The position numbers and the translations under genes are program-made. Below are positions 3,690 to 50,453 of a stretch of 64,000 nucleotides of DNA, in pieces (position 1 is the stretch's first letter; every line of letters begins with the position of its first letter). Location: assembly GCA_965207855.1 (NCBI GenBank), contig OZ242310.1:5128151-5192150 (forward strand). The letters are read 5' to 3'. The notes under the pieces were generated by a model. The model did not search any database. It was not told the DNA's origin and saw nothing but the letters and a program-made list of their open reading frames with translations. Source of the DNA: Candidatus Poribacteria bacterium. GTDB lineage: Bacteria; Poribacteria; WGA-4E; WGA-3G.

Positions 3690-5624
3690 TTAACGCTCGG
3701 TATTAGGGCGAAAAATTACCAAAGTATCACTATTTGTATCAAAATTTCCGCCCGCTGTTATGTCAGTAAAATTTCGAGAAGTCCACCCGATAATATAGGG
3801 TTGAGGGTTCAAACCCGTCCCCATCATCAGATATTGCAATACACCCTCTTGTTGTAGGATTCTCGCGAACGCTTCTCGCGTGTCGTTGAGTTCCACATCA
3901 GGCGGCATCTTTGACGTGGAATGCAGCCGGAGATGCGCTGTCGAAAGTTCGGTCTCTTGTTTCGGATTCGTACGGAGTGGAATGTCTCCTAAGTAAGTTA
4001 TTTGCTTACCTGTGACGCGCCACGCGTCTTCAAGTTCAACGGGCAGTTGCTGCGTAAATGCTTCCTTGATATAAGTCGTCGGGTGCCACGGCTCTACAAA
4101 GGCTCCTTGCAGTTGAACATCTGAATCATGCATCAACGTTCCAATCCGTTGGGTCAGTTCAGTTTCCTGATGGCGAATAAAAGTTCCGTCTGGAAACCCA
4201 AAGGATGTTTCTGTCCGTGCTACAGTCCTTATAGAAACAAAACTTTGTAGATGCGCACGCTGTCGCTCAGGATAGACCGACAAGATCGACAGTTGGTCTG
4301 CTGTCATCTTGTTAGGCAAAATATTTCTCGCCACCGCAATTGTGCACACCGAAAAGAAAATAAAGAGGCAGCTGCCTATCCAGTAACTGGACGATTTTCG
4401 TTTAGACCTCCCAAAATTGAGCAAGAGACCTCCGAAAATGAGAAGGTACACCGGTAAGACCACCGCCAATAGTTTAATGAGTGGCACTTGGGTCGGCATT
4501 TTTGAGAGAAATTGTTTATAAATCCGCTCCTCATGTTGACGAGAAAGCGCGTACTGATCTGCAAGATGTCGTGGAGATTTACCCGACTCACTCAGCAAAT
4601 GTTGCCAGAAGGCTTCACCTATCTTTTGCTCCGAGAGTGGCAACGCATTGTAATCATAAGCGAGACAGAGAATTTGCCCATCCCCAAAGTTTCGTTTTGC
4701 AACGTAAATTTCTTCCTTTGTACCGATTAACGTTTCATATCCGACTTTCGGTGCAAACACAATGCGTTCAAATAAAGTTCCATCGCTACCAGAAGCATGA
4801 AAACCGAGTTGTTCATATAAGGCATCAGAGAGTGTATCTGTTTTTTCTATACCGTTCAATTCAACGGGTAGGAAAGGTTCTACAAAACTGCCACGCAGTG
4901 CGTTAAAGCTACCGCCACCGGACATAATAAGGGTGCCGCCTCGTTGGACCCAATCAAGTAATGCTGTCTGTTTTGCTTTAGAGACATGTCTCTCTGTCAA
5001 AAAGGTCTCACGGATAACAAGGACATCAACAGCACTATAACCGATCCAATCCCGTAGCAGTGAGGTTGAATCCGGTAGGTATTTGACATGCACCTGTGCG
5101 CCGTTGGTAACCTTTAATTGTCTTTTGTCAATAAATCGTTTTAACTTATCACCGCTCGGTGCCAGCACCAACACGAGATAGTCTTTACGTGCGATAGGTG
5201 TGGGTAACAGCACTTCGTGGAACGCATCAGTGTCATAAGCATGTAAGCGTTCACTTTCTACAGGTACCGTGGACAGAAGTTTTATAACAAGTCGGGTCGC
5301 ATTTTTCGGGCAGTAAACATAGAAGTGCTTCTGCTGTCGTCCGGTTGGGCTGAGCCGCAGTGGGGTGGCGTATCGTTCAAAAGGTGTATCTGAAGTAAAA
5401 TTCTGGACCTCCACCACCAGTTTCCCAGTAAATACATCCGGTTCATCCTGACTCCAGACAGTAACAGTCAAGGGTGCCCATGTTCCTGTTTTGTAGCCGT
5501 CGCTGAATCCAAAGGTTGCATTCTCAACTTCCACGGCACCGTAGGCAACAGAGGCTGAAAAAAGCGAAAGGTAGAGCAGTATTCTCATTTCACCTACTCC
5601 AACGGAATTGAGGTTAGAATGCAC
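3690..5624 (-). CDS. large membrane protein of unknown function (signal peptide, central TM pair; GldG/ThuA-like GATase1-type segment)
   Basis: 644 aa; N-terminal hydrophobic signal; LIKLLAVVLPVYLLIFGGLLL and CLFIFFSVCTIAVA TM helices; VDVLVI...LLDWVQRGGTLIMSGG segment resembles class-I GATase-like/GldG domains. Confidence 0.5.
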   Translation of the reverse strand: MHSNLNSVGVGEMRILLYLSLFSASVAYGAVEVENATFGFSDGYKTGTWAPLTVTVWSQDEPDVFTGKLVVEVQNFTSDTPFERYATPLRLSPTGRQQKHFYVYCPKNATRLVIKLLSTVPVESERLHAYDTDAFHEVLLPTPIARKDYLVLVLAPSGDKLKRFIDKRQLKVTNGAQVHVKYLPDSTSLLRDWIGYSAVDVLVIRETFLTERHVSKAKQTALLDWVQRGGTLIMSGGGSFNALRGSFVEPFLPVELNGIEKTDTLSDALYEQLGFHASGSDGTLFERIVFAPKVGYETLIGTKEEIYVAKRNFGDGQILCLAYDYNALPLSEQKIGEAFWQHLLSESGKSPRHLADQYALSRQHEERIYKQFLSKMPTQVPLIKLLAVVLPVYLLIFGGLLLNFGRSKRKSSSYWIGSCLFIFFSVCTIAVARNILPNKMTADQLSILSVYPERQRAHLQSFVSIRTVARTETSFGFPDGTFIRHQETELTQRIGTLMHDSDVQLQGAFVEPWHPTTYIKEAFTQQLPVELEDAWRVTGKQITYLGDIPLRTNPKQETELSTAHLRLHSTSKMPPDVELNDTREAFARILQQEGVLQYLMMGTGLNPQPYIIGWTSRNFTDITAGGNFDTNSDTLVIFRPNTER

Positions 5625-5748: not shown

Positions 5749-6659
5749 TATTGGGTTGCCCCAACAAGACGCGCCGGATTGTTAACAAGTCTCGTCTTCA
5801 CTGCCCCTGCAAAAGAATGCGTGCTAAAAACGCCGTTTCCTAACATAATCATTGACGCAACACCACCTTCTGCCTCAATCTGTGAGATTGTATCAATGAC
5901 CCGTGCGTCCCTGAGCAAACCACTCTCTACTGAAAACTGCTTTGAGACAGCAAAGCAGGCGTTAAACAGTTCGGCACTGGAACTGGCGCGCGTAAGCGTT
6001 CGCAAAGTGTCCAAAGCCACATCAGCAGCATGATTAATACGAAGGGTTTGCTCCGGGTTTCTGAGGACTTCGCTTGTCTGAATCGGTCCGAAGTATCGAT
6101 AATAGATAGGTTGCTCCGCAATCGGCAACCTATCGGCGACCAAAGGCGCGCCTTCCTTCAACTTGACGAGACACCCCCCGTGGTATTGTGAGCATACATC
6201 TCCGAGTCCGGTGCGATTTTCTACTTCTGCGACATGTGCCACCATCGCAAGCGATTCTGTATCCTTGCGGAGACTTAAGAATTCATTGAGTGCATAGGCT
6301 GTTGCGAGTGCAGCGGCACCGCTAAGCCCGAAACCGCAGCCGAGTGGTAACGGGGATGTTAGGTCTACTCTTATGCCTGTAAGCCCAGTGTTTTGAATCA
6401 ACCGCTCAACAACAGCAAGCACTGTCGGAAAATTGATACTTTCCCCGTTAAATAGCACCTCTGTTTCATGGCAGTCAGAAATAGTAACGTTCACACCCTC
6501 TGTAACCGTAAATCCCATCCCAAGTGAGTGCATACGGGTTGCGTCGGAATGCGGAATAATCTTGAAGACACAAGAGATATTGCCGGGGGCATAAGCTCTC
6601 GCCATCTTTTTAACGATTAAATCTGAACTGCTACGTCCGTTGTCCTTGCAGATGCCCAA
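5748..6659 (-). CDS. GHMP-kinase superfamily protein (archaeal-type shikimate/pantoate-kinase-like)
   Basis: Gly/Ser-rich phosphate-binding loop PLGCGFGLSGAAALATAYAL; N-terminal AYAPGNIS resembles archaeal GHMP-type shikimate kinase start; start may be the internal Met (MARAYAPGN). Confidence 0.5.
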   Translation of the reverse strand: MGICKDNGRSSSDLIVKKMARAYAPGNISCVFKIIPHSDATRMHSLGMGFTVTEGVNVTISDCHETEVLFNGESINFPTVLAVVERLIQNTGLTGIRVDLTSPLPLGCGFGLSGAAALATAYALNEFLSLRKDTESLAMVAHVAEVENRTGLGDVCSQYHGGCLVKLKEGAPLVADRLPIAEQPIYYRYFGPIQTSEVLRNPEQTLRINHAADVALDTLRTLTRASSSAELFNACFAVSKQFSVESGLLRDARVIDTISQIEAEGGVASMIMLGNGVFSTHSFAGAVKTRLVNNPARLVGATQ

Positions 6660-6788
6660 TTGTTAACAACCCTTTCATAACCCAAAGCCGATTGGAATCA
6701 ATCAAAACCACCGTGAAATAGATCGCTTATGTGCGAGTATGCTGCAAAACATAGTGGAACGGTGGCGAGATTTAATAGTTTAAAAATT

Positions 6789-8192
6789 CTACACATTGCG
6801 TTGCGGCGGGGCATACCTTGGATGGAATGCGCCCTCACCACATTGTCCTTCCTCTATTTTTGCGGCTTGTCCGCCACCGGTGACGGAGCATCTCGCGCCA
6901 TCTAATTCCGGCAGCACATATCGTTGGAACCATGCCCCCATCTGTTGTCGCATGTCATCTATTCGGGCAGTCTGAGACTTTTCATCTATCAGATTTTTCC
7001 GTTCATCCGGGTCGTTCACCAAATCATAGAGTTCATGGGGTCCATACGGATATCTGTGGACGTATTTCCACTCTTGCGTCCGAATCATACGGACGGGCCC
7101 GTATTCATCGAAGACGACAATTTCATCTTTAGCATCGTTCGTTTCGCCAGAAAGCGCGGAAACAAAACTTCTGCCCGGTGACATATCGTCATTCGGATCG
7201 GGTAGACCGAGGTAATCCAGGAGTGTCGGCATGAAATCGTATTGGCTGACCATCGCTTCACTGACGCGCCCCTCTGGAATCCTGCCGGGTTGACTGATAA
7301 TGAAGGGGACTTTGACGGAATTTTCATACATATTCAGCGGGAACGTCCCGTTGCCTTTATGCCAAAATCCGTGATGCCCGCAGGAGTAGCCGTTGTCGCT
7401 ACTGAAAACAACGAGCGTATTTTCACGGATGCCGAGTTCGGTAAGCCTATCAAGAATCCGCCCGACGTTTAAATCGAGTGCTGTTATCGCTGCAAAGTAG
7501 CCTTTCAACGACTCACGGTTGCCCATGTGAACAGCGGCGCCCTGTACTGCCCACGGATGCAACGCCTCCTGTGGACAGGTTTTGAAGGGGCAATCGTCAT
7601 AGGAGTCAACGATGTCTTGTGGATGCCCTGTGAACGGGGTATGTGGTGCGTTATAGTTGACGCTGAGATAGAAAGGTCCGTCTTTGTTTGCCGAGATAAA
7701 GTTCAACGCGTCATCGGTGATGACATCAGTGAGGTAGCCGGGTTGTATCTCAACCTGTCCATCCCGAATCATGTCGGCGTCATTATATTTGCTGCCGCCA
7801 GTGAGCAAAGCGAACCAGTGGCTGAATCCGTGCTGTGGTGTTAGACTGTCGCCGAGGTGCCATTTGCCGCTCAATCCGACTGTATAATCATTTTCTGCGA
7901 GTACATCTGTATAACAGGTGAGTCCATCAAGGTATCGGGCAGGATTGGGTGGCATGTTTCCGTCGCGAATCCAGTCGTGGACACCGTGTGCCGAAGGGAT
8001 ACGTCCTGTCATGAGACTGGCGCGTGCTGGAGAACAGACGGGACTTGTGCAGAAGAAATTGGGGAAGCGTGTGCCTTCTGAAGCCAATTGGTCGAGATAA
8101 GGTGTGCGTACCTCGTCGTTCCCGCAGCACCCTGCTGCCCAGGGTCCCTGGTCGTCTGTTAGAACAAAAATGACATTTGGTTTGTTTTCCAT
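6789..8192 (-). CDS. sulfatase (formylglycine-dependent arylsulfatase family)
   Basis: 467 aa; CTSPVCSPARASLMTGR C-x-P-x-R sulfatase signature; no obvious signal peptide. Confidence 0.85.
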   Translation of the reverse strand: MENKPNVIFVLTDDQGPWAAGCCGNDEVRTPYLDQLASEGTRFPNFFCTSPVCSPARASLMTGRIPSAHGVHDWIRDGNMPPNPARYLDGLTCYTDVLAENDYTVGLSGKWHLGDSLTPQHGFSHWFALLTGGSKYNDADMIRDGQVEIQPGYLTDVITDDALNFISANKDGPFYLSVNYNAPHTPFTGHPQDIVDSYDDCPFKTCPQEALHPWAVQGAAVHMGNRESLKGYFAAITALDLNVGRILDRLTELGIRENTLVVFSSDNGYSCGHHGFWHKGNGTFPLNMYENSVKVPFIISQPGRIPEGRVSEAMVSQYDFMPTLLDYLGLPDPNDDMSPGRSFVSALSGETNDAKDEIVVFDEYGPVRMIRTQEWKYVHRYPYGPHELYDLVNDPDERKNLIDEKSQTARIDDMRQQMGAWFQRYVLPELDGARCSVTGGGQAAKIEEGQCGEGAFHPRYAPPQRNV

Positions 8193-8246: not shown

Positions 8247-8867
8247 TTACGCTTGCTCACTGATAGGGCCACTTCCTTTTTGCAATTCGTTAAGAAGGCG
8301 AACGATGTCGCGGTAGCATTTATCAAAGGAATCCGTTTGAAGTGCCTGCTCAAAATCAAAAAGTGCTGTGAGCGCGGGTTGGTCGCGCGTCTCATGATAT
8401 GTTCTACCGGTTTGCATTCGCTGGCGCAACCACTCCTTTGCTCCCCGGATTGCTTCTGGATTGTCCGGGGGATTAAGATCGTTCCTTAATCCTCTCCGTC
8501 CCCGAAGTGACTTGGCTGCTGCAAGGAACCATGACTCAAACTCGTATTTTGCTAATACAACAGCAATTGGTATATCGCTACGAGTTCGTGATGCTCGATT
8601 AAGCAGGGCGGGGCCGAGTTCCGCTGGACAGTCATCATCACTGTCAAGGATAATAAGTATAGCACCTTGTACCCCAATTTTTTCAACTGCTAATTCAACT
8701 CTTTGTTCAAGTTCTCCGTCTTTGACAATTTGGTTTCTGTGAACTCGGATGGGGCGCGGTATATCAACCGTCAACTCTGGATAAAGTTCCTTCGCTACAC
8801 GTCGGATCAAGATCGGTACAGCTACCACATCGCCAGCTCCCTCGACAATACAACCTATTTTGATCAT
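8247..8867 (-). CDS. DUF4276-like small protein with TOPRIM-like signature (candidate nuclease partner of adjacent ATPase)
   Basis: 206 aa; N-terminal IVEGAGD (conserved Glu) and ILDSDDD (DxD) resemble TOPRIM catalytic motifs; AKYEFESWFLA motif; start overlaps the upstream ATPase stop. Confidence 0.6.
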   Translation of the reverse strand: MIKIGCIVEGAGDVVAVPILIRRVAKELYPELTVDIPRPIRVHRNQIVKDGELEQRVELAVEKIGVQGAILIILDSDDDCPAELGPALLNRASRTRSDIPIAVVLAKYEFESWFLAAAKSLRGRRGLRNDLNPPDNPEAIRGAKEWLRQRMQTGRTYHETRDQPALTALFDFEQALQTDSFDKCYRDIVRLLNELQKGSGPISEQA

Positions 8868-10117
8868 TATCTGTGCTCGCTACTCTTCTCTCCTCTATTA
8901 GATTTTCCATTCTTGGGACCAAAGATTCGGAGTTGTTTAACGTTTTCAGTAGAAATTATAGATGCCGGGTCGGGTTGCAATTGATCGCAGCGCAAGAGTT
9001 CTCCGATTGTAAACAGTTTATCACGCACGACAGATCTGCTAACTTCGTCAACAGGAGCAATTACCGTATTTCCATCATGAGCTTCAACAGCGAGAATTGA
9101 ATCCACGTCCAAGTGTTTGTCCTCAAGGAGGTCCGGACTATGACAGGTGGTAATCACCTGTGCCTTGTAGGCAGGATATCGAAACTCATCAAACAACACC
9201 CCCGTCATTGCAGGATAGATCGCGATTTCTGGTTCTTCAATTCCCACAAGTGGTACGCGTTTTCGCGCGTCGTGATTTCCCTGAAACAATGCTACCAGAA
9301 TCCCTAACAAGCGGAGCGTACCATCAGACATATTACTTGCAAGAAATCGCCAAGGGTGTTTGTCTCCCGCTACATCCTGCCTGAACGCTAATGTTTCCTT
9401 GCTGCCAAACTTTTCAATTTCTACGCCACGAACACCAGGCACAATTATTGCCAGATATTCCTCAATGTCTTGTTTCGCAATGGGTGAAAGTTGGGCAAAA
9501 ACACTGGTAAGGTTTCTGCCATCACGAAGCAGCAGATCTCCAGGATCCGGGTCTTGGAGGTCTCGAATTTTATCAGGATTAAGATTGTAAAATCCCATCC
9601 GAGAAAATGCATCGTAGACAGGACGAAATTCGGGCAATCCAGAAGCATTCACCAGATAGAGTCGGTCTGTTGCAGCAGCTGGTGCCACCTTCATACTTGT
9701 GTCTGTCACAACACCATTATCAATACGGAAGTATTCCTTTAGGGTCTGACCCCGCTCATTTTGAACGCTACACTCTTCCGTCCGAACCTCATAACCTCCC
9801 GGTGAACGCTTCCTGATTTGGAAAGCATAGTGGCCCGTAAAATCTTCTGGCAAAGTGAATTCAAGGCGAATGCTAAAATGGTTTGGATGTCCGCGAGAGC
9901 GGCGGAGAACATCATTGATCCCGCCTCGGTCGCGTATCGCATGGTCAAGCGATAAATTCAACGCATCAGCAACAAATCGCAAGGCATCCAAGAAATTACT
10001 CTTGCCCGAACCGTTGCGACCTACAAGGAATGTTAAAGGTCCCAATCGCACATCACACGCAGCAATGCTCTTATAGTTTTTCAGAACGACCCTTGTGATA
10101 AAGGTTGAATCTCTCAT
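8867..10117 (-). CDS. ABC/SMC-like AAA ATPase (AAA_15/AAA_21 type, OLD/AriA-like)
   Basis: 416 aa; Walker A GRNGSGKSNFLDALRF; C-terminal LVGIEEPEIAIYP Walker B/D-loop typical of OLD-family ABC ATPases. Confidence 0.75.
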   Translation of the reverse strand: MRDSTFITRVVLKNYKSIAACDVRLGPLTFLVGRNGSGKSNFLDALRFVADALNLSLDHAIRDRGGINDVLRRSRGHPNHFSIRLEFTLPEDFTGHYAFQIRKRSPGGYEVRTEECSVQNERGQTLKEYFRIDNGVVTDTSMKVAPAAATDRLYLVNASGLPEFRPVYDAFSRMGFYNLNPDKIRDLQDPDPGDLLLRDGRNLTSVFAQLSPIAKQDIEEYLAIIVPGVRGVEIEKFGSKETLAFRQDVAGDKHPWRFLASNMSDGTLRLLGILVALFQGNHDARKRVPLVGIEEPEIAIYPAMTGVLFDEFRYPAYKAQVITTCHSPDLLEDKHLDVDSILAVEAHDGNTVIAPVDEVSRSVVRDKLFTIGELLRCDQLQPDPASIISTENVKQLRIFGPKNGKSNRGEKSSEHR

Positions 10118-10226
10118 GTTACTATACCTTATATCTTAATGTGGACGTTTGCACACAAAGACTGTATCTATATTAGAACTCATAATTACTGATACGCCAT
10201 TGTGAGATTTGCCGCATTTATGAAAA

Positions 10227-10250
10227 CACAAACTAACAGTTTGTGCTACA
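10227..10250. repeat. palindromic box ACAAACT-N-AGTTTGT + GCTACA tail (family member 1 of 5)
   Basis: CACAAACTAACAGTTTGTGCTACA; other members at 11214..11238, 24093..24117 (degenerate), 24291..24317, 50429..50453. Confidence 0.75.
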
Positions 10251-10269
10251 TTTCCGAGCTTCACTACAG

Positions 10270-11151
10270 TTATGCTACCGGAAATGCCTCACCCACGAGC
10301 GGTTTGCCATCCTCCACCTCAATTGTCGGAACGAGGACGTGATTGGGTGACTGTGCGTTATTATAGCAGACATCTTGCGCCATGAAAATCATAACGAACG
10401 CTCGGCGTTGATACTCCGTGACGTTTGGGGGTGTACCGTGCCAGTTGAGGCAGTGATGGAACATACATTCGCCTGCTTTTAATTCCACAGGAACGCCGTG
10501 GCTGATGTCCAACTTCTGCCTTTCCGACCACTGATTCGGCGAGGGTTCACGTCCTTCTTCACGTGCTTTCGCGGCTGCCGCATCCGCCTCGGCTCTTGCG
10601 GTGACAGAGAAGCGTTCATCTTTATGGCTCTTGGGCATAACGTGCATGCATCCGCTATCGACTGTCGCATCGTCCAAAGCAAGCCAGCAGCTGACGATGT
10701 TCGGTGGACTCAGGGGCCAGAAGAAGAAGTCGTGATGGAATCCGAAATGACCGTTGTCGTGGGGTGGCTTGGAAATAACCTGATCGTGCCAGAGACGGAC
10801 TTCGGGGGTATCCAGCAGTGCGCGTGCTGTGCCTGCGATGAGCGGATGGTGAATGGCTGCCTTATAGTGCGGCTCTCGCTTCCACATGTTGACGTATTGA
10901 TGGATTGCGCGTGGGTGGCCGCGCTGCCGATCCAGTTGCGTGTCATGCCGATCGTGTCCGTATTTGAACTCTGGCGACGACTCATCCCCTTCAGTGAGTT
11001 CCAATTCAATGATAGCATCTAACCCAGCACGCATGGCATCAACACCGTCGCTATCCAAAACTTTTCCAAACTTGAGATACCCGTTTTCCTGAAAAAACTT
11101 GATCTGTTCCTGTGTTATCATTGCGCTTCTCCACGTGTATTTGATGTACAT
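10270..11151 (-). CDS. phytanoyl-CoA dioxygenase (PhyH) family Fe/2OG oxygenase
   Basis: 293 aa; HxD...H arrangement (FHHDFFFW ... HCLNWHGTPPN) typical of the PhyH family. Confidence 0.7.
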   Translation of the reverse strand: MYIKYTWRSAMITQEQIKFFQENGYLKFGKVLDSDGVDAMRAGLDAIIELELTEGDESSPEFKYGHDRHDTQLDRQRGHPRAIHQYVNMWKREPHYKAAIHHPLIAGTARALLDTPEVRLWHDQVISKPPHDNGHFGFHHDFFFWPLSPPNIVSCWLALDDATVDSGCMHVMPKSHKDERFSVTARAEADAAAAKAREEGREPSPNQWSERQKLDISHGVPVELKAGECMFHHCLNWHGTPPNVTEYQRRAFVMIFMAQDVCYNNAQSPNHVLVPTIEVEDGKPLVGEAFPVA

Positions 11152-11213
11152 TATATCATTTCTGAAATTATATCTCGTGTTTATACTACGTTTATGAAGG
11201 TGACCCCTGACTG

Positions 11214-11238
11214 CACAAACTAAAAGTTTGTGCTACAA
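11214..11238. repeat. palindromic box ACAAACTAAAAGTTTGT + GCTACAA tail
   Basis: CACAAACTAAAAGTTTGTGCTACAA. Confidence 0.75.
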
Positions 11239-11280
11239 CAGTTCGTGTTTGTTACGGCACACGGCGTGTGCCTACTACTT

Positions 11281-12039
11281 TTAAATCGGAAATTGATGAT
11301 TGCCAGCGGTTAGCCCGCCATCAATGACGAAAACTGCGCCCGTTGCGAAACTTGCCTCATCGGAGGCGAGGAAAAGGGCAGCGTTGGCGATGTCAACGGG
11401 TTGCCCGATGCGTCCGAGCGGATACCACGGCGTGATTTCGTCCAAGATGTTTGGGTTGCGTTCAATCATCGGTTCCCAAACTTCGGTCTGAATTGTTCCG
11501 GGACAGATACAGTTGATACGTATGTTGTCTTTACCGTGCGCGACTGCCATAGAGCGGGTCAGTGCGATAACGCCACCTTTCGCAGCAGAATAGGCGTGAA
11601 TCGCCTGTAACCCGATAAGCCCGTTGACTGAGGCAATGTTGACAATGCTACCGTCACCACGCTTTTGCATGACAGGAATGACGGTGTTGGAACAGTGGCT
11701 GGTGCCTCGGAGTGCGACTGCCAAATTTGCCTCCCAGTTGTTGTTGAGCACATCGGCTGTCGAACAGATGGCGTTGTTCACAAGGATGTCAACTGTGTCG
11801 TAGGTATCAACAGCCTTCGTGATGAGTCGTTCTGCCTCGGTAGCATCAGAGACATCGGCGTTGACAAATAGTGCCTCGCCGCCTGCATCGGTTATGGCAG
11901 AGACAGTTGACGTTCCAGTGGCATCGTTTATATCATTAACAAGGACTTTGGCTCCCTCTTCGGCGAACCGTAGGGCTACGGCTCTGCCGATACCTCGACC
12001 AGCTCCTGTGACAATGGCAATTTTATTATTTAACCGCAT
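11281..12039 (-). CDS. SDR-family short-chain dehydrogenase/reductase
   Basis: [12 protein letters not shown] Rossmann motif; catalytic YSAAK; 252 aa. Confidence 0.9.
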
Positions 12040-12076
12040 CTACTTTTGACCTACATCTTTTTCGTGAAAGTGAAAA

Positions 12077-12103
12077 GTCGCGAGCAAAGCTCGCTCCTAC
12101 AAG
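12077..12103. repeat. GCGAGC-N3-GCTCGC hairpin box with CTCCTACAAG tail
   Basis: GTCGCGAGCAAAGCTCGCTCCTACAAG; second copy GTCGCGAGCACAGCTCGCTCCTACAG at 41978..42003; tail-only copy CTCGCTCCTACAACTG at about 24381..24397. Confidence 0.7.
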
Positions 12104-12124
12104 AAGATACTCTCGTATATTTTC

Positions 12125-12886
12125 CTAATGTTGCAATGTTTGTGAAATAAAAAGTTTCGTGCGTTCGTGCTGTGGGTTATCAAAGAAATCTGCGGGTGCT
12201 GCCTCCTCAACGATTAGTCCCTCATCAAAAAATAGGACTCGGTCAGCGACTTCACGGGCAAAACCCATCTCGTGGGTAACAACAAGCATCGTCATGCCAG
12301 AGTGTGCTAACTCACGCATCACATCAAGGACCTCTGTAATCATCTCCGGGTCAAGCGCACTTGTCGGCTCATCGAAGAGCATAATCTTGGGTTCCATGGC
12401 TAAGGCTCTTGCGATTGCGACGCGCTGTTGCTGTCCACCCGAAATTTCTGCGGGGTACTTGTCCGCTTGGTCTGCAATATTGACACGTTCTAAGAGTGCT
12501 AAAGCCTGCGATTCTGCTTCGCTCTTGGGTATCTTTCTGACCCGGATGGGCCCTAATGTTATATTCTGCAGATTCGTCAGGTGCGGAAACAGGTTGAATT
12601 GTTGAAAGACCATACCGACCTCGCGGCGGATAAGGTCGATATTACGGAGGTCATTGGTGAGTTCAATTCCGTCAACGACAATTTTGCCGCGTTGATGTTC
12701 CTCAAGTCGGTTCAGCGTCCTGATGAACGTGGACTTCCCTGAACCGGAGGGACCGCAGATCACAGCACGCTCGCCTTTTTGGAACGAGGTTGTAACACCT
12801 TTAAGGACATGGAAATCGTCAAACCATTTGTGTACATCCTCGCAGACAATAATAGGATCGTTTGTTGCGTTTTCAAGAGTAGCCAT
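12125..12886 (-). CDS. amino-acid ABC transporter ATP-binding protein (AapP/GlnQ-like)
   Basis: Walker [10 protein letters not shown]; [16 protein letters not shown]; 253 aa polar amino-acid ABC ATPase architecture. Confidence 0.9.
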
Positions 12887-12969
12887 TTTTTTAAATCCGT
12901 TGTGGTATCGGGGTTCAAACCCCGCCTACAGTGTATTGCAGAAAATCGGGTGGGGCAACCCCGCCCCTA

Positions 12970-14187
12970 CTACAAGTTTTTTCCAACACCGAGCGCTTCT
13001 TCAACTTTTTGGCTGACGTAGGACATTGAATAACTAAAAACAAAATAGATGACGGCAACAAAGATATATACCTCGGCTTGCAATCCGAGCCAATCGGGGT
13101 TTGCGATAACGCTTTTCGCAATGCCCAAGAGATCGAGTAACCCGACGATGGTAACGAGTGATGTATCCTTGAAGAGTGCTATGAATTGCCCAACAATCGC
13201 CGGTATAACAGAACGGAGGGCTTGTGGCAAAACGATAAATAGCATTGTCAGTGGATAGTTGAGTCCAACTGCTTGTGCGGCTTCATATTGTCCCCTCGGA
13301 ATCGCTTGAAGTCCGCCCCGGACGTTCTCCGCCATGTAAGCCGCAGAGAAGAGTGTTATCCCCAGCATCGCTCGCAGAACTTTATCAAGGCGGATATTGT
13401 CGGGCATAAAAATCGGGATCACGACCTGTGCCATAAACAGGATTGTGACCAACGGTACGCCGCGAACTATCTCAATATAGGCGGTTGAAACCCATTTAAC
13501 AGCAGGTAAAGTGCTCCGTCTTCCGAGTGCGAGTAGGACACCGAGCGGAAAACAGAAACAGATACCGACAGCTGCGAGAATCAGCGTAAGCAGCAATCCA
13601 CCCCAATTTGTTGTGAGGACGACATTCTCGCCGAAACCGTGTAGCATTATGAGGGTCCACGGAAAAGAGAATAACCATCCAACGAGGACCCAGCGGCGTA
13701 TCTTCGGAAATACGCCTGCGCTACGGCTCCCAAGAAAGAGAAAGACTGCGAGCAGGACGACCGCGCCGAGTATCCATCCGCGCGTCGCCCAACCAAAGGT
13801 TGGTATACCCATCGATAGAAGTGCAATTATGATCCCAACGCCTCCGATGCCGACAGCAAACCTGAGTGTCAATCCACCCCAAATTCCGCCACTCAAACCT
13901 GCCAACGCGCAGACGGTATAAAGGACGATCCAAACGCGCCAGACTTCGGCTATAGGATAGGCACCAATCGCAAAAAGTTGCAGATTCGCCGGGATAACGC
14001 CCCACGTCGCATCCGTGAACGCCCAGACCAAAATGCCCTTCAAAAGGAGGTATACACAGCCGAGAGTGACAAGGGTTAAGAGCGTGTTGTACCATGTGCT
14101 AAAGAGGTTTTCTTTAATCCACGCTAAAACACCTTTTGAACTCTTAGGCGGTCTAATTTCTTCTGTAAACTGTGATTCAGGTACCAT
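12970..14187 (-). CDS. amino-acid ABC transporter permease (AapM/YhdY-like)
   Basis: 405 aa polytopic membrane protein; EAA-loop-like region; operonic with ATPase and second permease. Confidence 0.8.
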   Translation of the reverse strand: MVPESQFTEEIRPPKSSKGVLAWIKENLFSTWYNTLLTLVTLGCVYLLLKGILVWAFTDATWGVIPANLQLFAIGAYPIAEVWRVWIVLYTVCALAGLSGGIWGGLTLRFAVGIGGVGIIIALLSMGIPTFGWATRGWILGAVVLLAVFLFLGSRSAGVFPKIRRWVLVGWLFSFPWTLIMLHGFGENVVLTTNWGGLLLTLILAAVGICFCFPLGVLLALGRRSTLPAVKWVSTAYIEIVRGVPLVTILFMAQVVIPIFMPDNIRLDKVLRAMLGITLFSAAYMAENVRGGLQAIPRGQYEAAQAVGLNYPLTMLFIVLPQALRSVIPAIVGQFIALFKDTSLVTIVGLLDLLGIAKSVIANPDWLGLQAEVYIFVAVIYFVFSYSMSYVSQKVEEALGVGKNL

Positions 14188-14252
14188 AGATATTGTTCGT
14201 TAGAAGAAGAGCCACAGCCTAACAGGCTATGCTACAACTATAGGTTTTTTCG

Positions 14253-15422
14253 TCATCGTCTAACACGGTTAATCCAGCGATTGTACCAATTCATAGCCGC
14301 CGATGTTGTCAAACTCATAATCAAATAACTCACCATAATCATTGCAAACACAGGTATGGATTGCCCCGTTTGGAGCATCATCGTGTTACCAATGCTGAAC
14401 ACATCTGGGAAACCGATAGCAATCGCTAAGCTTGAGTTTTTGGCGAGGTTGAGGTACTGACTCGTGAGCGGCGGTACGATGATCGGGACGGCTTGCGGTA
14501 GAACAACTAACTGCAGGGTTTGTGCTTCGCTTAATCCGACAGCTTTCGCAGCCTCGCGTTGCCCTTTCACAACGGCTTGTATGCCACTTCTCACGACTTC
14601 AGCGATGAAGGCTCCCGTATAAACAGAAAGCCCGATTAAAAGTGCGGAGAATTCAGGGGATAAACTGATGCCACCAACGAAGTTAAAACCTCTCAAAACA
14701 GGTGGGTCGAGTCTGAACGGCTTTTCTGGGGTCAGAAACCACCCGATCAGTGCAATGATTAGGAAAGCAGGGAGTGCCCACTTGGCACGAAATCCAGGCA
14801 TCTCGAGTTGGCGAAGTTGTCTCGCACGTAGGACATAGAGAATTGCAGCTACGATAAGACCTACGAGAAGATAGACACTCCATACCTTGAAACCCGAAGT
14901 CGGTTCAGGTGAAGGGAGGTAGACCCCGCGCTGGTTAATGAAAACATCTCCAAATAGTGAGATACTGTCTCGAACTCTCGGCAGTTGAAGGATGACGGCA
15001 GTATACCAAAATAGTATCTGGAGTAGAAGGGGAACGTTTCGGAAACACTCGACATAGACAGCAGCAACAGTTCGGATAAGCCAATTGCTCGAAAGGCGAG
15101 AAATACCAACAATGAGCCCCAGAACTGTTGCACATACAATTCCTATGAGACTCACTTTTAGGGTGTTCACCACTCCTACCCAAAATGCCTTAAGATAGGT
15201 ATCTGAAGGCGCGTATTCAATCCCTTCAGAAATATCAAATCCGGCTTCATTCTCCAGAAATTCGAGATTCAGCGTTAGCCCAAGGTTGTTCAATCCCCTG
15301 AGCATATTCATGTAGAGGATACCCGCTAAGAGGAGAACACCTATAAGAAAAAGGACTTGGAGTAGCACGCGTAGGACGCGAACATCTCGCCAGAAAGGAA
15401 TTGTCGTAGAATTTAGTGCCAT
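14253..15422 (-). CDS. amino-acid ABC transporter permease (AapQ/YhdX-like)
   Basis: 389 aa polytopic membrane protein, same operon. Confidence 0.8.
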   Translation of the reverse strand: MALNSTTIPFWRDVRVLRVLLQVLFLIGVLLLAGILYMNMLRGLNNLGLTLNLEFLENEAGFDISEGIEYAPSDTYLKAFWVGVVNTLKVSLIGIVCATVLGLIVGISRLSSNWLIRTVAAVYVECFRNVPLLLQILFWYTAVILQLPRVRDSISLFGDVFINQRGVYLPSPEPTSGFKVWSVYLLVGLIVAAILYVLRARQLRQLEMPGFRAKWALPAFLIIALIGWFLTPEKPFRLDPPVLRGFNFVGGISLSPEFSALLIGLSVYTGAFIAEVVRSGIQAVVKGQREAAKAVGLSEAQTLQLVVLPQAVPIIVPPLTSQYLNLAKNSSLAIAIGFPDVFSIGNTMMLQTGQSIPVFAMIMVSYLIMSLTTSAAMNWYNRWINRVRR

Positions 15423-15576
15423 TTTTTAATAGTTGTCAGTCGTCAGCAGTCAGTGGCTCATCGTGGTAGTTGTCAACACTTTCACCTACCACAACGTTCT
15501 TTGACTGTCAATTGGCTGCTGACAACCGATAGCCATTGAAGCATTTACCTCAGTCTGCCGTATAGTGATGCTTCCG

Positions 15577-16638
15577 CTAACGGAACGGCATTGCGTAGAG
15601 GAGTCCGCCTTGCGTCCACGACTTATTGACCCCGCGGGGTAGCCCCAGGGGTGTGAGGTTGCGTTCAAAGATTTCACCGTAGTTGCCGACAGCCGAAACG
15701 ACTTGATGCGCCCAATCCTTTGACAAACCGAGTTTTTCTCCGATATCGCCGGTTTTGCCTAAGAAGCGTTGGATTTCTGGGTTCTGGGTTTCAAAAGTAC
15801 TGGCATTGGCTTGTGTAATGCCGTGTTCTTCAGCGAAAAAGGTAGCGTAAACGGTCCAGCTCACGACATCGTTCCACTTATTATCACCATGGACGGTAAC
15901 AGGTCCGAGGGGTTCCTTTGAGATGGTCGCCTCAAGTATAATATGCGCCTCTGGATCTTTGAGAACTTGGCGCCGTGCGACCAACTGAGATTTATCAGAG
16001 GTTACAACATCACACCGCCCCTGTTCGTAACTGTTGTAGAGCGTATCAATTTCTTCAAAAACAACGGGGTTGAAATCAACACCCAAAGCCCGCATCGTGT
16101 CTGTTAAGTTCAACTCAGTGGTGCTACCTGCCGTCACACCGATACTTGCGCCTGCCAATTCCTCCAGCGAAGTGACACCGAGTTCTTTCGGGAGCATAAA
16201 TCCCTGCCCATCATAAAAGGTTGGGGGTGCGAAATCCGCGCCGACTTGGGTATCGCGCGTAAGCGTCCACGTTGTATTTCGGATCAAGACATCTATTTCG
16301 CCTGTCTGTAAGGCGGGAAAACGCTCAGGTGCTTTCAAGGGAACGAATTCTACTTTGCTGGGATCACCGAGCACAGCGGCAGCAATCGCTCTCCCATAAT
16401 CCACATCAAAGCCGGTCCATTCACCATTTTCATTGAGGAATCCAAAGCCGGGCAGGCTACCGTGTACCCCACAAATTAACCGTCCTCTGTTTTTAACTCT
16501 GTCCAAAACGCCGTCTTCGCTGCTCGCGAGTAGCGGCATCATCAACGAAGTCACTAAAATTAATACGAAAACACGAAACAAAAATTTGTGCACAAAAAAA
16601 TCCTCTCTTTTTGGTGTGACCGCTATCGCAGCGGTCAT
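15577..16638 (-). CDS. amino-acid ABC transporter periplasmic substrate-binding protein (AapJ-like)
   Basis: 353 aa; N-terminal hydrophobic signal; first gene of the J-Q-M-P order typical of general L-amino-acid transporters. Confidence 0.75.
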   Translation of the reverse strand: MTAAIAVTPKREDFFVHKFLFRVFVLILVTSLMMPLLASSEDGVLDRVKNRGRLICGVHGSLPGFGFLNENGEWTGFDVDYGRAIAAAVLGDPSKVEFVPLKAPERFPALQTGEIDVLIRNTTWTLTRDTQVGADFAPPTFYDGQGFMLPKELGVTSLEELAGASIGVTAGSTTELNLTDTMRALGVDFNPVVFEEIDTLYNSYEQGRCDVVTSDKSQLVARRQVLKDPEAHIILEATISKEPLGPVTVHGDNKWNDVVSWTVYATFFAEEHGITQANASTFETQNPEIQRFLGKTGDIGEKLGLSKDWAHQVVSAVGNYGEIFERNLTPLGLPRGVNKSWTQGGLLYAMPFR

Positions 16639-16861
16639 TGTAAGGAAGTATGTTGATTAAGGTTTTTTATTTTCATTCGGTCCATCTTTATACATTTTAT
16701 CAAACTGTGGTTATGCTGTCAAGGGAATTAATCCTGCCCTATTTCGTGCAATTGGTTATAAAGAATGTCCCATTTGGGGCAGTAATTTCTGGTTCAGTTT
16801 GCCAAGTGTTCTGTCCAGTGCTTTTCAGATCGGCACAAAATTTGCTGCATTAAACTGCACT

Positions 16862-16896
16862 TGACACATTTCAAGAGCCGTGCTAACATAGTTGAA
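16862..16896 (+). promoter_or_regulatory. sigma70-type promoter candidate for the TPR gene
   Basis: TTGACA, 17-nt spacer, TAACAT, about 25 nt upstream of RBS AAGGAGA and ATG at 16923. Confidence 0.4.
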
Positions 16897-16922
16897 ATAA
16901 ATACTCGCCAAGGAGAAAAGAG

Positions 16923-18161
16923 ATGAAACAGTTCATAATCGCAGAAATTTGTATTATTGTCGCCCTTGCTGGCGGATTCTGGTTGGGGCGCGTCACAAAC
17001 AAGAGTGAAAGTTATGCCCACTATTACGACAACGCTGACAAAGCTTGGACAGAAGCACAGACGCTCGACAATCCACCTATAACATTAGATGAGCCAGACA
17101 AAAACCGTTTGCGAAAAGTCCGCGCTGCTTATCGTGAAGTTTTTGAAAAATACCCTGACAGCCTCTGGGCAGATGATGCGATCTATCAACTCGCCTCCCG
17201 TATCCCACGTACAGATGAAGAGGCTTTTGCGCTCTTTCGCCGACTCATCAACAATTATCCGGACAGTGAGTTGGCAGACGATTCGATGTACGCCATTGCT
17301 TTTGCCTCTTACCAGATTGCGGAGGAGTTAAAACGGACAGGGACACTTGAATCACTTGCGGCATATTACGACCGCGCTCTCACACTTTATAATCAATTAA
17401 TTGCGGCGTATCCAGGGAGTGAACTGTCGGAACAGGCGCAGTTTAACACGGCGATGTGCTACTACGGCAAAGGTGAATTGAATATCGCGCTCGCACAACT
17501 GGATGCGCTCCGGGAACCCTTCAGCGATAGTCCCCTTCTCTACCAGATTCTGTACGTTACTGGCGAAATTTATCTCAAGAAGCAAGAATACGAAAATGCG
17601 CGAGTGGAATTCACAAACGTCGTTGATTCGGGTGATCCTATCTTGGCACCGCTTGCGAGTTTCGGTATCGCGCAGACCTATCTCGCGGAAGGTACATACG
17701 AGGAGGCGGTAGCAGCCTATCAAACGGTTATCGATTTGTATCCAGACTCGAAAGCCGGGCAAGATGCGCACTTCTATAGGGGATGGGCTTATGAAAGACT
17801 CGGTAAGTATGACGAAGCGATCGCCCAACTTGAAACAGCGATCGATTTGTATCCGCGCAACGAAAATGCTGCTAATTCGCAAATTTATGTTGGACAAATC
17901 GCCTACGCCAACAACGATATGGCGAGTGCTATTGAGGCGTATCAGAAGGTCGCCGATAACAGCACTTATGATTACGACAACCGTCGTCAAGCGCAATATT
18001 GGGTTGGCAAAATCTATGAAGACAACGGTGACACGGAGTTAGCGGTTGAGGCATATCGGAAATTACTCACCCAATTTTCGGAACCACATAAAGAAGGCGC
18101 GCACCCTTCAAACAGTATCAGCGAAACGTATATTCAGAACTTAAGGGGTACAGGACTCTAA
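16923..18161 (+). CDS. TPR-repeat protein (YbgF/CpoB-like, N-terminal membrane anchor)
   Basis: 412 aa; N-terminal hydrophobic helix; multiple 34-aa TPR-like repeats (YPDS...AIYQLA, YPDSELADDS, YPGSELSEQAQF, YPDSKAGQDAHF). Confidence 0.8.
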   Translation: MKQFIIAEICIIVALAGGFWLGRVTNKSESYAHYYDNADKAWTEAQTLDNPPITLDEPDKNRLRKVRAAYREVFEKYPDSLWADDAIYQLASRIPRTDEEAFALFRRLINNYPDSELADDSMYAIAFASYQIAEELKRTGTLESLAAYYDRALTLYNQLIAAYPGSELSEQAQFNTAMCYYGKGELNIALAQLDALREPFSDSPLLYQILYVTGEIYLKKQEYENARVEFTNVVDSGDPILAPLASFGIAQTYLAEGTYEEAVAAYQTVIDLYPDSKAGQDAHFYRGWAYERLGKYDEAIAQLETAIDLYPRNENAANSQIYVGQIAYANNDMASAIEAYQKVADNSTYDYDNRRQAQYWVGKIYEDNGDTELAVEAYRKLLTQFSEPHKEGAHPSNSISETYIQNLRGTGL

Positions 18162-19346
18162 GGCTTGTGCTAAGTCTGCGAGAATATCCGCAACATCTTC
18201 AAGCCCAACCGAGATTCTGACCAAGCCATCTGTAACGCCGGTGCGGTGTCTAATCTCCGCGGGTACATGTGAATGCGTTGTTGAGGCAGGATGGCAAATG
18301 AGGGTGCGTACGTCGCCCAAACTGACGGCGAGTGAGCAGAGTTGAAGTTGATCGACAAGGCTTTCACCGGCAGCGTGTCCACCTTTCAGTTCCATCGTTA
18401 TCATACCCCCGAAGGCATCCATTTGGGCCTTGGCGAGTTCGTGTTGTGGGTGGCTGCGCAGACCGGGATAACAGACCCGTGCCACTGCTGGGTGCGCCTC
18501 AAGGAACGCCGCGAGGCGTCCAGCATTTTCACAGTGTCGTGTATAGCGCAACGGTAGCGTCGCGATGCCGTGCAGCGTTAGCCACGCATTGAACGGACTG
18601 ATGACCGCTCCAAAGTTGCGTAACGCCCCTTCTTTGGCACGCGTAATGAACACCTTTTCTCCGACAATCGCACCGGCGATAACTGCCCCGTTGCCGCTGA
18701 GATACTTTGTCATACTATGAACGACGACATCGATACCGAGTGGAATCGGTTGCTGTCCGCACGGCGTTGAAAATGTGTTGTCGATAATTGAGGTTACGCC
18801 GTGTGCTTTCGCGATCTCGGCAGCCTTTCGCAAGTCAACCAGTTTTAAGAGCGGATTTGTCGGACTTTCAAGATAGAGCACCTTTGTATCCGTTCTGATG
18901 GCGCGTTCAATTTGCGCCGGATCTGTGGCATCAACAAATGTTGTTTCGACCCCGAACCGCCGAAGGTCTTCATTGAGGATTTGGAAGGTAGCGGAATAGA
19001 GATTTTCCATAGCGACCACATGCCCGCCATCGGCTAAAGCAGTAAGGAGTGCAACGCTGATGGCCCCCATTCCCGATGCTGTTGCGAGTGCGGCTTCACC
19101 GCCTTCAAGGACAGCGAGCTTCTCCTCTAATATATCTTGTGTCGGATTGCCCCAGCGGGTATAGACGTAACCACTTTCTTCGTCTCGGAATGCTTCCGCA
19201 CATTCAGCAGCTGTTGCGAACCGGAACGTGCTGTTTTGATAGATGGGTGGTAATAGTGGGGTTCCACTTTTTTCGGTGGTGTCTTTTGAGGTTTCACCCG
19301 CATGGATGGCTTGGGTTGTTTTACCTAAATTCTTCTGAGATGTCAT
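18141..19346 (-). CDS. PLP-dependent Cys/Met-metabolism enzyme (methionine gamma-lyase / O-acetylhomoserine sulfhydrylase family)
   Basis: 401 aa; HSMTKYLSGNG with PLP-lysine; family length; 21-nt convergent overlap with the TPR gene end. Confidence 0.85.
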   Translation of the reverse strand: MTSQKNLGKTTQAIHAGETSKDTTEKSGTPLLPPIYQNSTFRFATAAECAEAFRDEESGYVYTRWGNPTQDILEEKLAVLEGGEAALATASGMGAISVALLTALADGGHVVAMENLYSATFQILNEDLRRFGVETTFVDATDPAQIERAIRTDTKVLYLESPTNPLLKLVDLRKAAEIAKAHGVTSIIDNTFSTPCGQQPIPLGIDVVVHSMTKYLSGNGAVIAGAIVGEKVFITRAKEGALRNFGAVISPFNAWLTLHGIATLPLRYTRHCENAGRLAAFLEAHPAVARVCYPGLRSHPQHELAKAQMDAFGGMITMELKGGHAAGESLVDQLQLCSLAVSLGDVRTLICHPASTTHSHVPAEIRHRTGVTDGLVRISVGLEDVADILADLAQALESCTP

Positions 19347-24290: not shown

Positions 24291-24317
24291 CACAAACTAA
24301 AAGTTTATGCTACAAAG
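24291..24317. repeat. palindromic box ACAAACTAAAAGTTTAT + GCTACAAAG tail
   Basis: CACAAACTAAAAGTTTATGCTACAAAG; degenerate neighbour CAAACAAAAAGTTTACGCTACAAAA at 24093..24117. Confidence 0.7.
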
Positions 24318-50428: not shown

Positions 50429-50453
50429 CACAAACTAAAAGTTTGTGCTACAC
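50429..50453. repeat. palindromic box ACAAACTAAAAGTTTGT + GCTACAC tail
   Basis: CACAAACTAAAAGTTTGTGCTACAC. Confidence 0.75.

Follow-up and report, generated by a model that had tools for sequence, protein, structure and literature searches.

A coupled gene pair of the HEC-01 family

The window analysed here, a stretch of 64,000 nucleotides from the genome of Candidatus Poribacteria bacterium (contig OZ242310.1), contained two adjacent genes on the minus strand, A and B, which encoded an ATP-binding cassette (ABC) ATPase and a small DUF4276 protein and which, judged from their sequences, are a HEC-01 candidate anti-phage system (Table 1). A preliminary description of this DNA had reported an ATPase coupled to a 206-residue protein through a stop and start shared at position 8867, and the two open reading frames and their TAATG overlap were found exactly so; the five motifs that it listed (GRNGSGKSN and LVGIEEPE in A, IVEGAGD, ILDSDDD and EFESW in B) were all recovered on translation. 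The junction read AGATAATGATC, in which the TAA stop of A shared one base with the start codon (ATG) of B. The overlap was kept across related loci, at 4 nt in 38 and 1 nt in 9 of 47 pairs, and A and B are predicted to be translationally coupled.

Scans of the family databases revealed the identity of the pair. Against PADLOC-DB, A matched the HEC-01A model PDLC04178 over residues 2-388 (399-position model, E 1.9e-157, 522 bits), and B matched the HEC-01B model PDLC04196 over residues 1-194 of 197 (E 1.6e-75). The two components that PADLOC requires, HEC-01A and an adjacent HEC-01B on the same strand, were thus both present at full length, which bore out the earlier proposal of a candidate defence pair and makes it a further member of an already catalogued candidate system. 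The next-best matches of A outside the HEC models were far weaker, with AriA at 90 bits (6.4e-26, a partial match restricted to residues 220-332), followed by mad3, AbiLi, Old and GajA, and also NsnB. The score of A for the NCBIfam model MAD3 (NF047739) was 84.9 bits, below the cut-off of 420. In Pfam, A matched AAA_21 (2e-25), AAA_15 (7e-16) and SMC_N (2e-12), in agreement with its initial assignment to the ABC/AAA_21 type. B matched DUF4276 (PF14103) with an E-value of 5.4e-9 over profile positions 1-186 of 192, and its 37.0 bits exceeded the gathering threshold of 30.2, and the earlier assignment of the EFESW-bearing protein to DUF4276 was correct. The family scans of B gave matches only to HEC-01B models and DUF4276, and none to AriB/DUF4435 or Toprim_Old. 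The B family comprised 2,836 clusters at 50% identity (E <= 1e-3); DUF4276 was matched by all 122 diverse representatives, and RloB, weakly, by 6 of them. The PARIS/OLD/Gabija type of logic first ascribed to the pair therefore held as regards the split into an ATPase and a TOPRIM-type partner, but the family is HEC-01 and not PARIS or OLD/Gabija.

HEC-01 was named as an "Hma-embedded candidate" system by Payne et al. (bioRxiv 10.1101/2024.01.29.577857) and is included in PADLOC-DB v2. The same authors described it as an ABC ATPase paired with a TOPRIM protein whose metal site is that of the OLD protein from B. pseudomallei.

Table 1. Features of the HEC-01 pair and of its upstream spacer (positions in the window).
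Feature	Position	Strand	Description
Gene A	8867..10117	minus	416 aa, ATG start, TAA stop at 8867-8869; ABC-type (SMC/Rad50/OLD-like) ATPase, HEC-01A
Gene B	8247..8867	minus	206 aa, ATG at 8865-8867; DUF4276/TOPRIM-like, predicted metal-dependent nuclease, HEC-01B
A stop/B start overlap TAATG	8865..8869	minus	Predicted to couple A and B (from sequence)
Walker A/P-loop GRNGSGKSN (A)	9995..10021	minus	Residues 33-41, Lys39; G33, R34, N35, G36, G38, K39, S40 and N41 invariant in 68 homologues
Most variable internal segment (A)	9668..9847	minus	Insert that follows the Walker A helix (about residues 91-150); candidate surface for sensing
ABC signature-like MSDGTLR (A)	9311..9331	minus	Residues 263-269, within a conserved block; D265, G266, T267 and R269 invariant in 68 homologues
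Walker B LVGIEEPE (A)	9227..9250	minus	Residues 290-297; L290, G292, E294, E295, P296 and E297 invariant in 68 homologues; aligns with IEEPE of TsOLD
H-loop/switch TCHSPD (A)	9131..9148	minus	His326; H326, S327 and P328 invariant in 68 homologues; aligns with THSP of TsOLD
Glu9 in IVEGAGD (B; motif 8829-8849)	8841..8843	minus	Candidate TOPRIM catalytic Glu, end of strand 1
Asp75-Ser-Asp77 in ILDSDDD (B; motif 8631-8651)	8637..8645	minus	Candidate TOPRIM DxD metal-binding motif, directly after strand 3
EFESW (B; Glu109, Glu111, Trp113)	8529..8543	minus	Start of helix 4; family signature
PhyH-A spacer	10118..10269	minus	152 bp; AAGG Shine-Dalgarno about 8-11 nt before the ATG; REP-like hairpin at 10227-10245

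Motifs of the ATPase

The motif set of an ABC ATPase was complete in A, comprising Walker A, the signature, Walker B with the catalytic Glu, and the H-loop, and was invariant or nearly so among the homologues; by this set of motifs A is assigned to the ABC ATPases. A profile of the A family found its closest solved relatives in the OLD protein of T. scotoductus (TsOLD, 6p74; 1.7e-9), GajA (2.6e-9) and PtuA (1.7e-8), and also matched SMC/Rad50 structures and, weakly, AriA (8ux9, E 3.9e-3). The catalytic core was highly conserved, and the variability was concentrated at residues ~91-150, ~191-260 and 281-288 and in the C-terminal tail. Column entropy reached 1.1-2.0 bits in the first of these segments, compared with 0.2-0.5 bits in the core motifs. 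By analogy with the variable inserts of HEC ATPases (bioRxiv 10.1101/2024.01.29.577857), this segment may serve as a sensor.

The small protein as a predicted TOPRIM-like nuclease

The structure of B was predicted by AlphaFold2 (AF2) with 60 homologues, and the model was confident, with a mean predicted local distance difference test score (pLDDT) of 83.8 and a predicted template modelling score (pTM) of 0.77. Its core consisted of β1(2-9)-α1-β2(40-42)-α2-β3(68-74)-α3-β4(101-105)-α4 and was followed by a helical C-terminal half. In this model B has the arrangement of a TOPRIM domain, with E9 ending strand 1 and D75-S-D77 following strand 3, and the E...DxD pattern that had been called typical of TOPRIM nucleases was thus located at the expected structural positions and was conserved. 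Two alignments were used to follow these residues, one of 60 close homologues and one of the 122 diverse representatives. E9 was invariant in the former and at least 90% conserved in the latter, D75 was invariant in both, and D77 was at least 90% conserved among the close homologues. All three signature residues E109, E111 and W113 were invariant in the close homologues; among the diverse representatives W113 was invariant and E109 and E111 were at least 90% conserved. E109 and E111 are probably additional acidic ligands.

The classification agrees with previous studies, in which DUF4276/HEC-01B was assigned to TOPRIM and its metal site described as OLD-like (bioRxiv 10.1101/2024.01.29.577857), and DUF4276 and RloB were independently classed as TOPRIM members, Mad4 being a DUF4276 homologue (PMC12065111). 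Foldseek searches with the B model returned no E-value below 0.009 in the PDB or in the viral structures of BFVD, and the B profile hidden Markov models (HMMs; A1 and A3) found no relative among the PDB sequences, so that no family member with a solved structure was identified there. When the B profile A3 was aligned with P2 Old by hhalign, IVEGhGE was placed on LLVEGKTE of Old, with a probability of 0.3%, which is not significant. A 609-residue protein from an organism of high G+C content (P0261) had the appearance of a single-polypeptide fusion of A and B. Its Arg/Pro-rich linker resembled an out-of-frame read-through, and for this reason it was given no weight as evidence of linkage; it may be a frameshift or gene-calling artefact and not a true OLD-like fusion.

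Chromosomal site and distribution

The neighbours of the pair on the same strand were a sulfatase gene (6789..8192), a GHMP-kinase-like gene, a PhyH-type dioxygenase gene (10270..11151), a short-chain dehydrogenase/reductase (SDR) gene and genes of an amino-acid-type ABC transporter. All were metabolic or transport genes, and the preliminary description had likewise placed the pair among metabolic genes. No second copy of A or B was present in the 64-kb window, and no GajB/UvrD-like helicase, no other MADS or Menshen gene, and no Hma gene or defence island was found among the window neighbours, which were metabolic on either side.

To describe the distribution, one genome per GTDB species was scanned and loci were recovered through their B homologue, giving 80 loci (numbered with the prefix L), 75 of which were from Poribacteria or Poribacteria-like genomes. 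The order PhyH-A-B-sulfatase-(GHMP kinase) of the window was found in 59 of the 75, and B homologues at 65-98% identity bore Candidatus Poribacteria names. A sample anchored on the sulfatase, which was unbiased as to the pair and was small (six distinct loci only), gave A-B in four loci (L083, L084, L105 and L106) and A alone in L081 (identical to L082); in the sixth, L107, the sulfatase stood in another context, and both PhyH and the pair were absent. At least A was therefore present in all five distinct sulfatase-anchored loci that retained PhyH, and no empty PhyH|sulfatase site was seen among these five and the 59 syntenic B-carrying loci. The G+C content of the pair was ordinary (46.9%, compared with 48.0 +/- 2.3% for the window), its third-position G+C content (GC3) was below that of the immediate flanks, and the mean third-codon-position distances were equal (0.47 for A, 0.45 for B and 0.45 for the sulfatase). 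Because of the synteny, the ordinary G+C content and the third-position divergence equal to that of the flanks, the pair is read as an old resident of the PhyH|sulfatase site. A recent horizontal insertion was rejected from the synteny, the composition and the average synonymous divergence, and the initial view of a variably present, inserted islet was not upheld, with the unbiased sample being small.

Sixteen Poribacteria loci carried the same HEC-01 subfamily at other places. In L033 an Hma island (10649-18740) began directly downstream of the pair. It consisted of HmaA (3.3e-193), a helicase with a NOV_C domain; a PtuA-like, Septu-type ATPase (4.5e-132); and HmaB (1.1e-114), a DUF1156 methylase. 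An Hma island next to HEC-01 is the context in which the system was first defined. Homology clustering showed that the neighbours in L049, L057 and L061 were homologous to the L033 island. In seven other Poribacteria loci the pair had PD40/hydrolase genes on one side and arrays of genes for periplasmic binding proteins on the other. Outside Poribacteria, pairs with 58-63% identity were found in metagenome-assembled genomes of Acidobacteriota and Clostridia.

Several other features of the region were observed. A 644-residue open reading frame at 3690-5624 of the window (minus strand), with no Pfam match, was syntenic across Poribacteria and fast-evolving (38-89% identity). In L106, IS605 OrfB/TnpB (Cas12f-like) genes at 512-1774 and 11206-11404 bracketed the conserved PhyH-A-B-sulfatase-GHMP block, and in L105 the sulfatase was separated from the GHMP kinase by an inserted Uma2-family endonuclease gene (6592-7173). 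In L002, L003, L005, L009, L083, L084, L106 and about 30 others, the first sulfatase gene was followed in tandem, just downstream, by a second paralogue, which was absent from the window. It had about 85% identity to the window sulfatase by tblastn, with one called product of 512 residues (L106); the clusters of 513 residues (84-85% identity) are only assumed to be this paralogue.

Allele diversity, probable recombination and selection

The alleles were compared in 53 single-copy syntenic loci. The adjacent sulfatase had a mean amino-acid identity of 91.2%, whereas the means of A and B were 70.5% and 70.1%, and the alleles of the 53 genomes fell into 28 clusters at 20% amino-acid distance. The distances of A and B correlated poorly with those of the flank (Spearman 0.37 and 0.44), and the genome closest in the sulfatase was also the closest in A for only 9, and in B for only 12, of the 53 genomes. 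In the pairs L011/L023, L019/L076, L003/L044 and L030/L036, the sulfatase genes differed by about 5% in nucleotides, yet A and B differed by 25-29%. L006 and L007 had almost identical A genes (0.8%) with B and sulfatase at 6%, and L023/L025 was a mosaic pair, at a distance of 0.229 in A and 0.081 in B. Synonymous divergence from the window allele was above that of the flanks in L020 and L055 and, for A, below it in L002 and L004. The distances of A and B were correlated with each other (Mantel r 0.57, p 0.002), and this correlation, with the overlap conserved in 47 pairs, argues for a functional linkage of the two proteins. The ratio of nonsynonymous to synonymous substitution (dN/dS) was about 0.09-0.20 for A and about 0.2 for B, compared with 0.05 for the sulfatase, by which both are predicted to be functional genes under purifying selection.

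Copy number at the site was also variable. Between PhyH and sulfatase, L028 (4929-10588) had three tandem A-B cassettes. The identity between copies 2 and 3 was 88% for A and 86% for B, and each of them shared about 70% with copy 1. In L015, L041 and L055, A-B was followed by a full-length orphan A adjoining the sulfatase, and L081/L082 had an orphan-type A alone (L081, 4672-5895), without B. A duplicated 3' fragment of PhyH (residues 242-293) was located in L055 (10685-10839) between the cassettes, ahead of the orphan A, and is likely a trace left when a cassette was imported through recombination inside PhyH. In L008, A was cut to its first 61 codons (9758-9940) and B (10001-10606) was intact beside the sulfatase. 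From these comparisons of sequences, it is allele sequence and copy number that vary at a fixed site, rather than presence and absence, and the pattern fits long-lived divergent alleles that were shuffled by recombination between lineages. No description of such a fixed-site, hyperdiverse, recombining series of HEC-01 alleles was found in the literature searched.

The spacer upstream of the pair

The spacer between PhyH and A contained a single hairpin, CACAAACT-GTT-AGTTTGTG, 24 nt past the PhyH stop codon. The preliminary description had noted palindromic repeat boxes at 10227..10250 as consistent with an inserted defence islet; a palindrome was indeed present, as this one hairpin, but it belonged to a dispersed family of the type of repetitive extragenic palindromes (REP). 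The extended motif GTAGCACAAACT-N3-AGTTTGTG occurred at 10227-10245, 11214-11232, 24291-24309 and 50429-50447, always between genes. With up to 3 mismatches allowed, these 4 sites in 64 kb compared with 0.01 expected by chance, and because of this recurrence the palindrome is not specific to the pair. It looks like a dispersed REP-like element of the genome that is not part of the system and not an insertion scar. Its reading as a Rho-independent terminator was rejected, since it was unreported by the terminator scan and had too few G-C pairs. The 152-bp spacer folded no better than shuffled sequences (z = -0.82), and consensus scans of the upstream region gave nothing above background.

In related loci the spacer was either 17-18 bp (21 loci) or 52-65 bp (about 25 loci) in length. 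The short spacers carried a Shine-Dalgarno sequence, and their length suggests that the pair is co-transcribed with PhyH in many species. The 52-65 bp spacers held a different conserved hairpin, GGGGTTACAAACCCC. The hairpin element ATCGGGGTTACAAACCCCTCCTACAGCAGAGG was observed in the spacers of L002, L004, L006, L012, L013, L017, L023-L025, L036, L048 and others, with two tandem copies in L002. One possible reading of it is a second REP-like family, and another is an element of regulation or termination that these loci share.

Proposed mechanism and alternative explanations

At a probability of roughly 0.75, we consider the pair to be a chromosomal system of the HEC-01 type, in which an ABC ATPase acts with a translationally coupled, DUF4276/TOPRIM-like, Mg-dependent nuclease, and which is an old resident of its site, kept by purifying selection, with divergent alleles exchanged by recombination and occasionally duplicated in tandem. 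The mechanism proposed for it is drawn by analogy from the biology of OLD, Gabija and PARIS (PMC11464382; Payne et al.). A would dimerise head-to-head around ATP and hold or gate B. The variable inserts of A would recognise a phage-derived cue, and this recognition would license B to cut nucleic acid, the possible targets being the DNA of the phage and the RNA, for instance tRNA, of either host or phage. Cleavage by B would then stop the infection, with direct degradation and abortive infection both conceivable.

Several observations weigh against this reading or limit it. The HEC-01 representative of Payne et al. protected against none of the phages used (bioRxiv 10.1101/2024.01.29.577857), whereas E. 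coli B carrying one representative from a cold-seep metagenome was reported to be protected from one or more of the phages T4, T5 and T7 (PMC12881386); both were alleles other than that of the window. The defence activity of HEC-01 itself is uncertain, since one phage test was negative and the other positive. For defence cargo it is unusual to occupy a fixed single site throughout the lineage, with a spacer of only 17-18 bp to PhyH in 21 loci. The search of IMG/VR yielded no relatives, 50,697 phage records gave one weak match (31%), and the plasmid collection gave three Streptomyces matches only, so that there was no sign of carriage of the family by phages or plasmids. No 20-codon window had a dN/dS above 1, the maximum being 0.64 in the disordered C-terminus of A, and diversifying or positive selection was therefore not demonstrated. 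The AF2 model of A (68 homologues) was poor, with a pLDDT of 55 and a pTM of 0.42; it allowed no inference on the inserts or on the A-B interface, and because of its low confidence it was not used for fold searches or for interpretation of the inserts.

The alternative that survives best, although we regard it as unlikely, is a domesticated housekeeping ATPase-nuclease in DNA repair, recombination or RNA processing, comparable to chromosomal OLD-family or RecF/SbcC-like proteins, which would be inherited vertically and co-expressed with its metabolic neighbours and would have no defence role. It would account for the same site in 59 of 75 loci with no empty site seen, for the operon suggested by the 17-18 bp spacers with Shine-Dalgarno in 21 loci, for the purifying selection on both genes, the average third-position divergence equal to the flanks and the unremarkable G+C content, and for the lack of defence by the HEC-01 of Payne et al. 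However, a mean identity of about 70% beside flanks at 91% is not normal for housekeeping genes, nor do the concordance of nearest neighbours with the flanks in just 9-12 of 53 genomes and the mosaic alleles agree with vertical inheritance. The tandem triplication, orphan A genes and truncated copies at the locus also argue against it, as do the occurrence of the same subfamily in other Poribacteria, both next to an Hma/Septu-like island and at two further sites, and the protection conferred by the cold-seep representative (PMC12881386).

A selfish addiction module of the toxin-antitoxin (TA) kind, in which a toxic nuclease B would be restrained by A and its loss would be lethal, without net anti-phage benefit, appears less probable still. 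The tight coupling of A and B, the lack of empty sites and the TA-like action of PARIS-type systems (PMC11464382) would agree with it, and AAA_21 has the Pfam label "putative AbiEii toxin, Type IV TA system"; but this label is the name of a family and no test. The intact B beside a truncated A in L008 and the A genes without B in L081, L015, L041 and L055 do not fit strict addiction. Because TA behaviour and defence by abortive infection are compatible, addiction is a sub-mechanism more than a true rival. That the pair is a bona fide PARIS (AriA/AriB) member or a split OLD/Gabija system, as an ABC ATPase with a separate TOPRIM-type partner and the weak AriA, Old and GajA matches of A might suggest, is very improbable and is already contradicted by the family scans, in which B matched neither AriB/DUF4435 nor Toprim_Old and A scored 522 bits for HEC-01A against 90 bits for AriA, while OLD and GajA are single fused polypeptides and no GajB/UvrD-like helicase adjoined the pair.

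A further step can be put forward tentatively, with odds that we consider to be somewhat below even. In sponge-associated Poribacteria, the PhyH|sulfatase site might be a lineage-wide, permanently occupied immune locus, at which dozens of old HEC-01 alleles are maintained and are reshuffled by A/B exchange and by tandem stacking to three cassettes and at which the inserts of the ATPase set the phage trigger. Such immunity, resembling that of the major histocompatibility complex (MHC) and kept by balancing selection, would differ from the usual gain and loss of defence islands.

Comparison with known systems and significance

Recognising the pair adds little in itself, since PADLOC would label it automatically. 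The significance is in the alleles. The phage tests of HEC-01 conflict. With its roughly 80 natural alleles, some of them orphan, truncated or tandem, a single orthologous site offers a series for mapping the parts of the ATPase that determine specificity. The same Poribacteria series allows a test of DUF4276 as an active TOPRIM nuclease. For a defence-type cassette, a fixed position combined with hyperdiverse sequences across a symbiont lineage is the opposite of the usual pattern of presence and absence, and it bears on the upkeep of immune diversity in obligate or host-restricted symbionts, Poribacteria being symbionts of sponges.

Of the known systems, MADS (Mad3/Mad4), the DUF4276 variants of Menshen NsnC, and AbiL (AbiLi with the RloB-type AbiLii) have related AAA_21-type ATPases with DUF4276 or RloB TOPRIM-like effectors (PMC12065111). 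The identity of the pair as MADS or AbiL was ruled out by the sub-threshold MAD3 score and the metabolic flanking genes, and by B not being RloB. The ATPase parts of OLD and of Gabija GajA are the closest solved relatives of A; in both proteins, however, ATPase and TOPRIM are fused, whereas they are separate open reading frames in the window, and Gabija needs the helicase GajB, for which there was no counterpart here. PARIS, which consists of the ABC ATPase AriA and the DUF4435 TOPRIM nuclease AriB (PMC11464382), resembles the pair in having a split ABC ATPase and TOPRIM effector in adjacent genes, and a model in which the nuclease is first sequestered and then released is plausible for the pair as well. 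Unlike AriB, B has DUF4276 instead of DUF4435 and, with 206 residues, is much smaller than the 35 kDa of AriB (PMC11464382); A is only distantly related to AriA. PARIS is often found in viral genomes (PMC11464382), whereas the family of the window was almost absent from the phage and plasmid collections. HEC-01 itself has the same architecture, with two genes on the same strand encoding an ABC ATPase and then a TOPRIM-like DUF4276 protein, with full-length HMM matches to both, and Poribacteria relatives of the pair adjoin Hma genes as in the original discovery. In contrast to HEC-01 as first discovered, the pair of the window is located outside any Hma or defence island, between metabolic genes, at a site that is fixed across the lineage and occupied by strongly diverse alleles.

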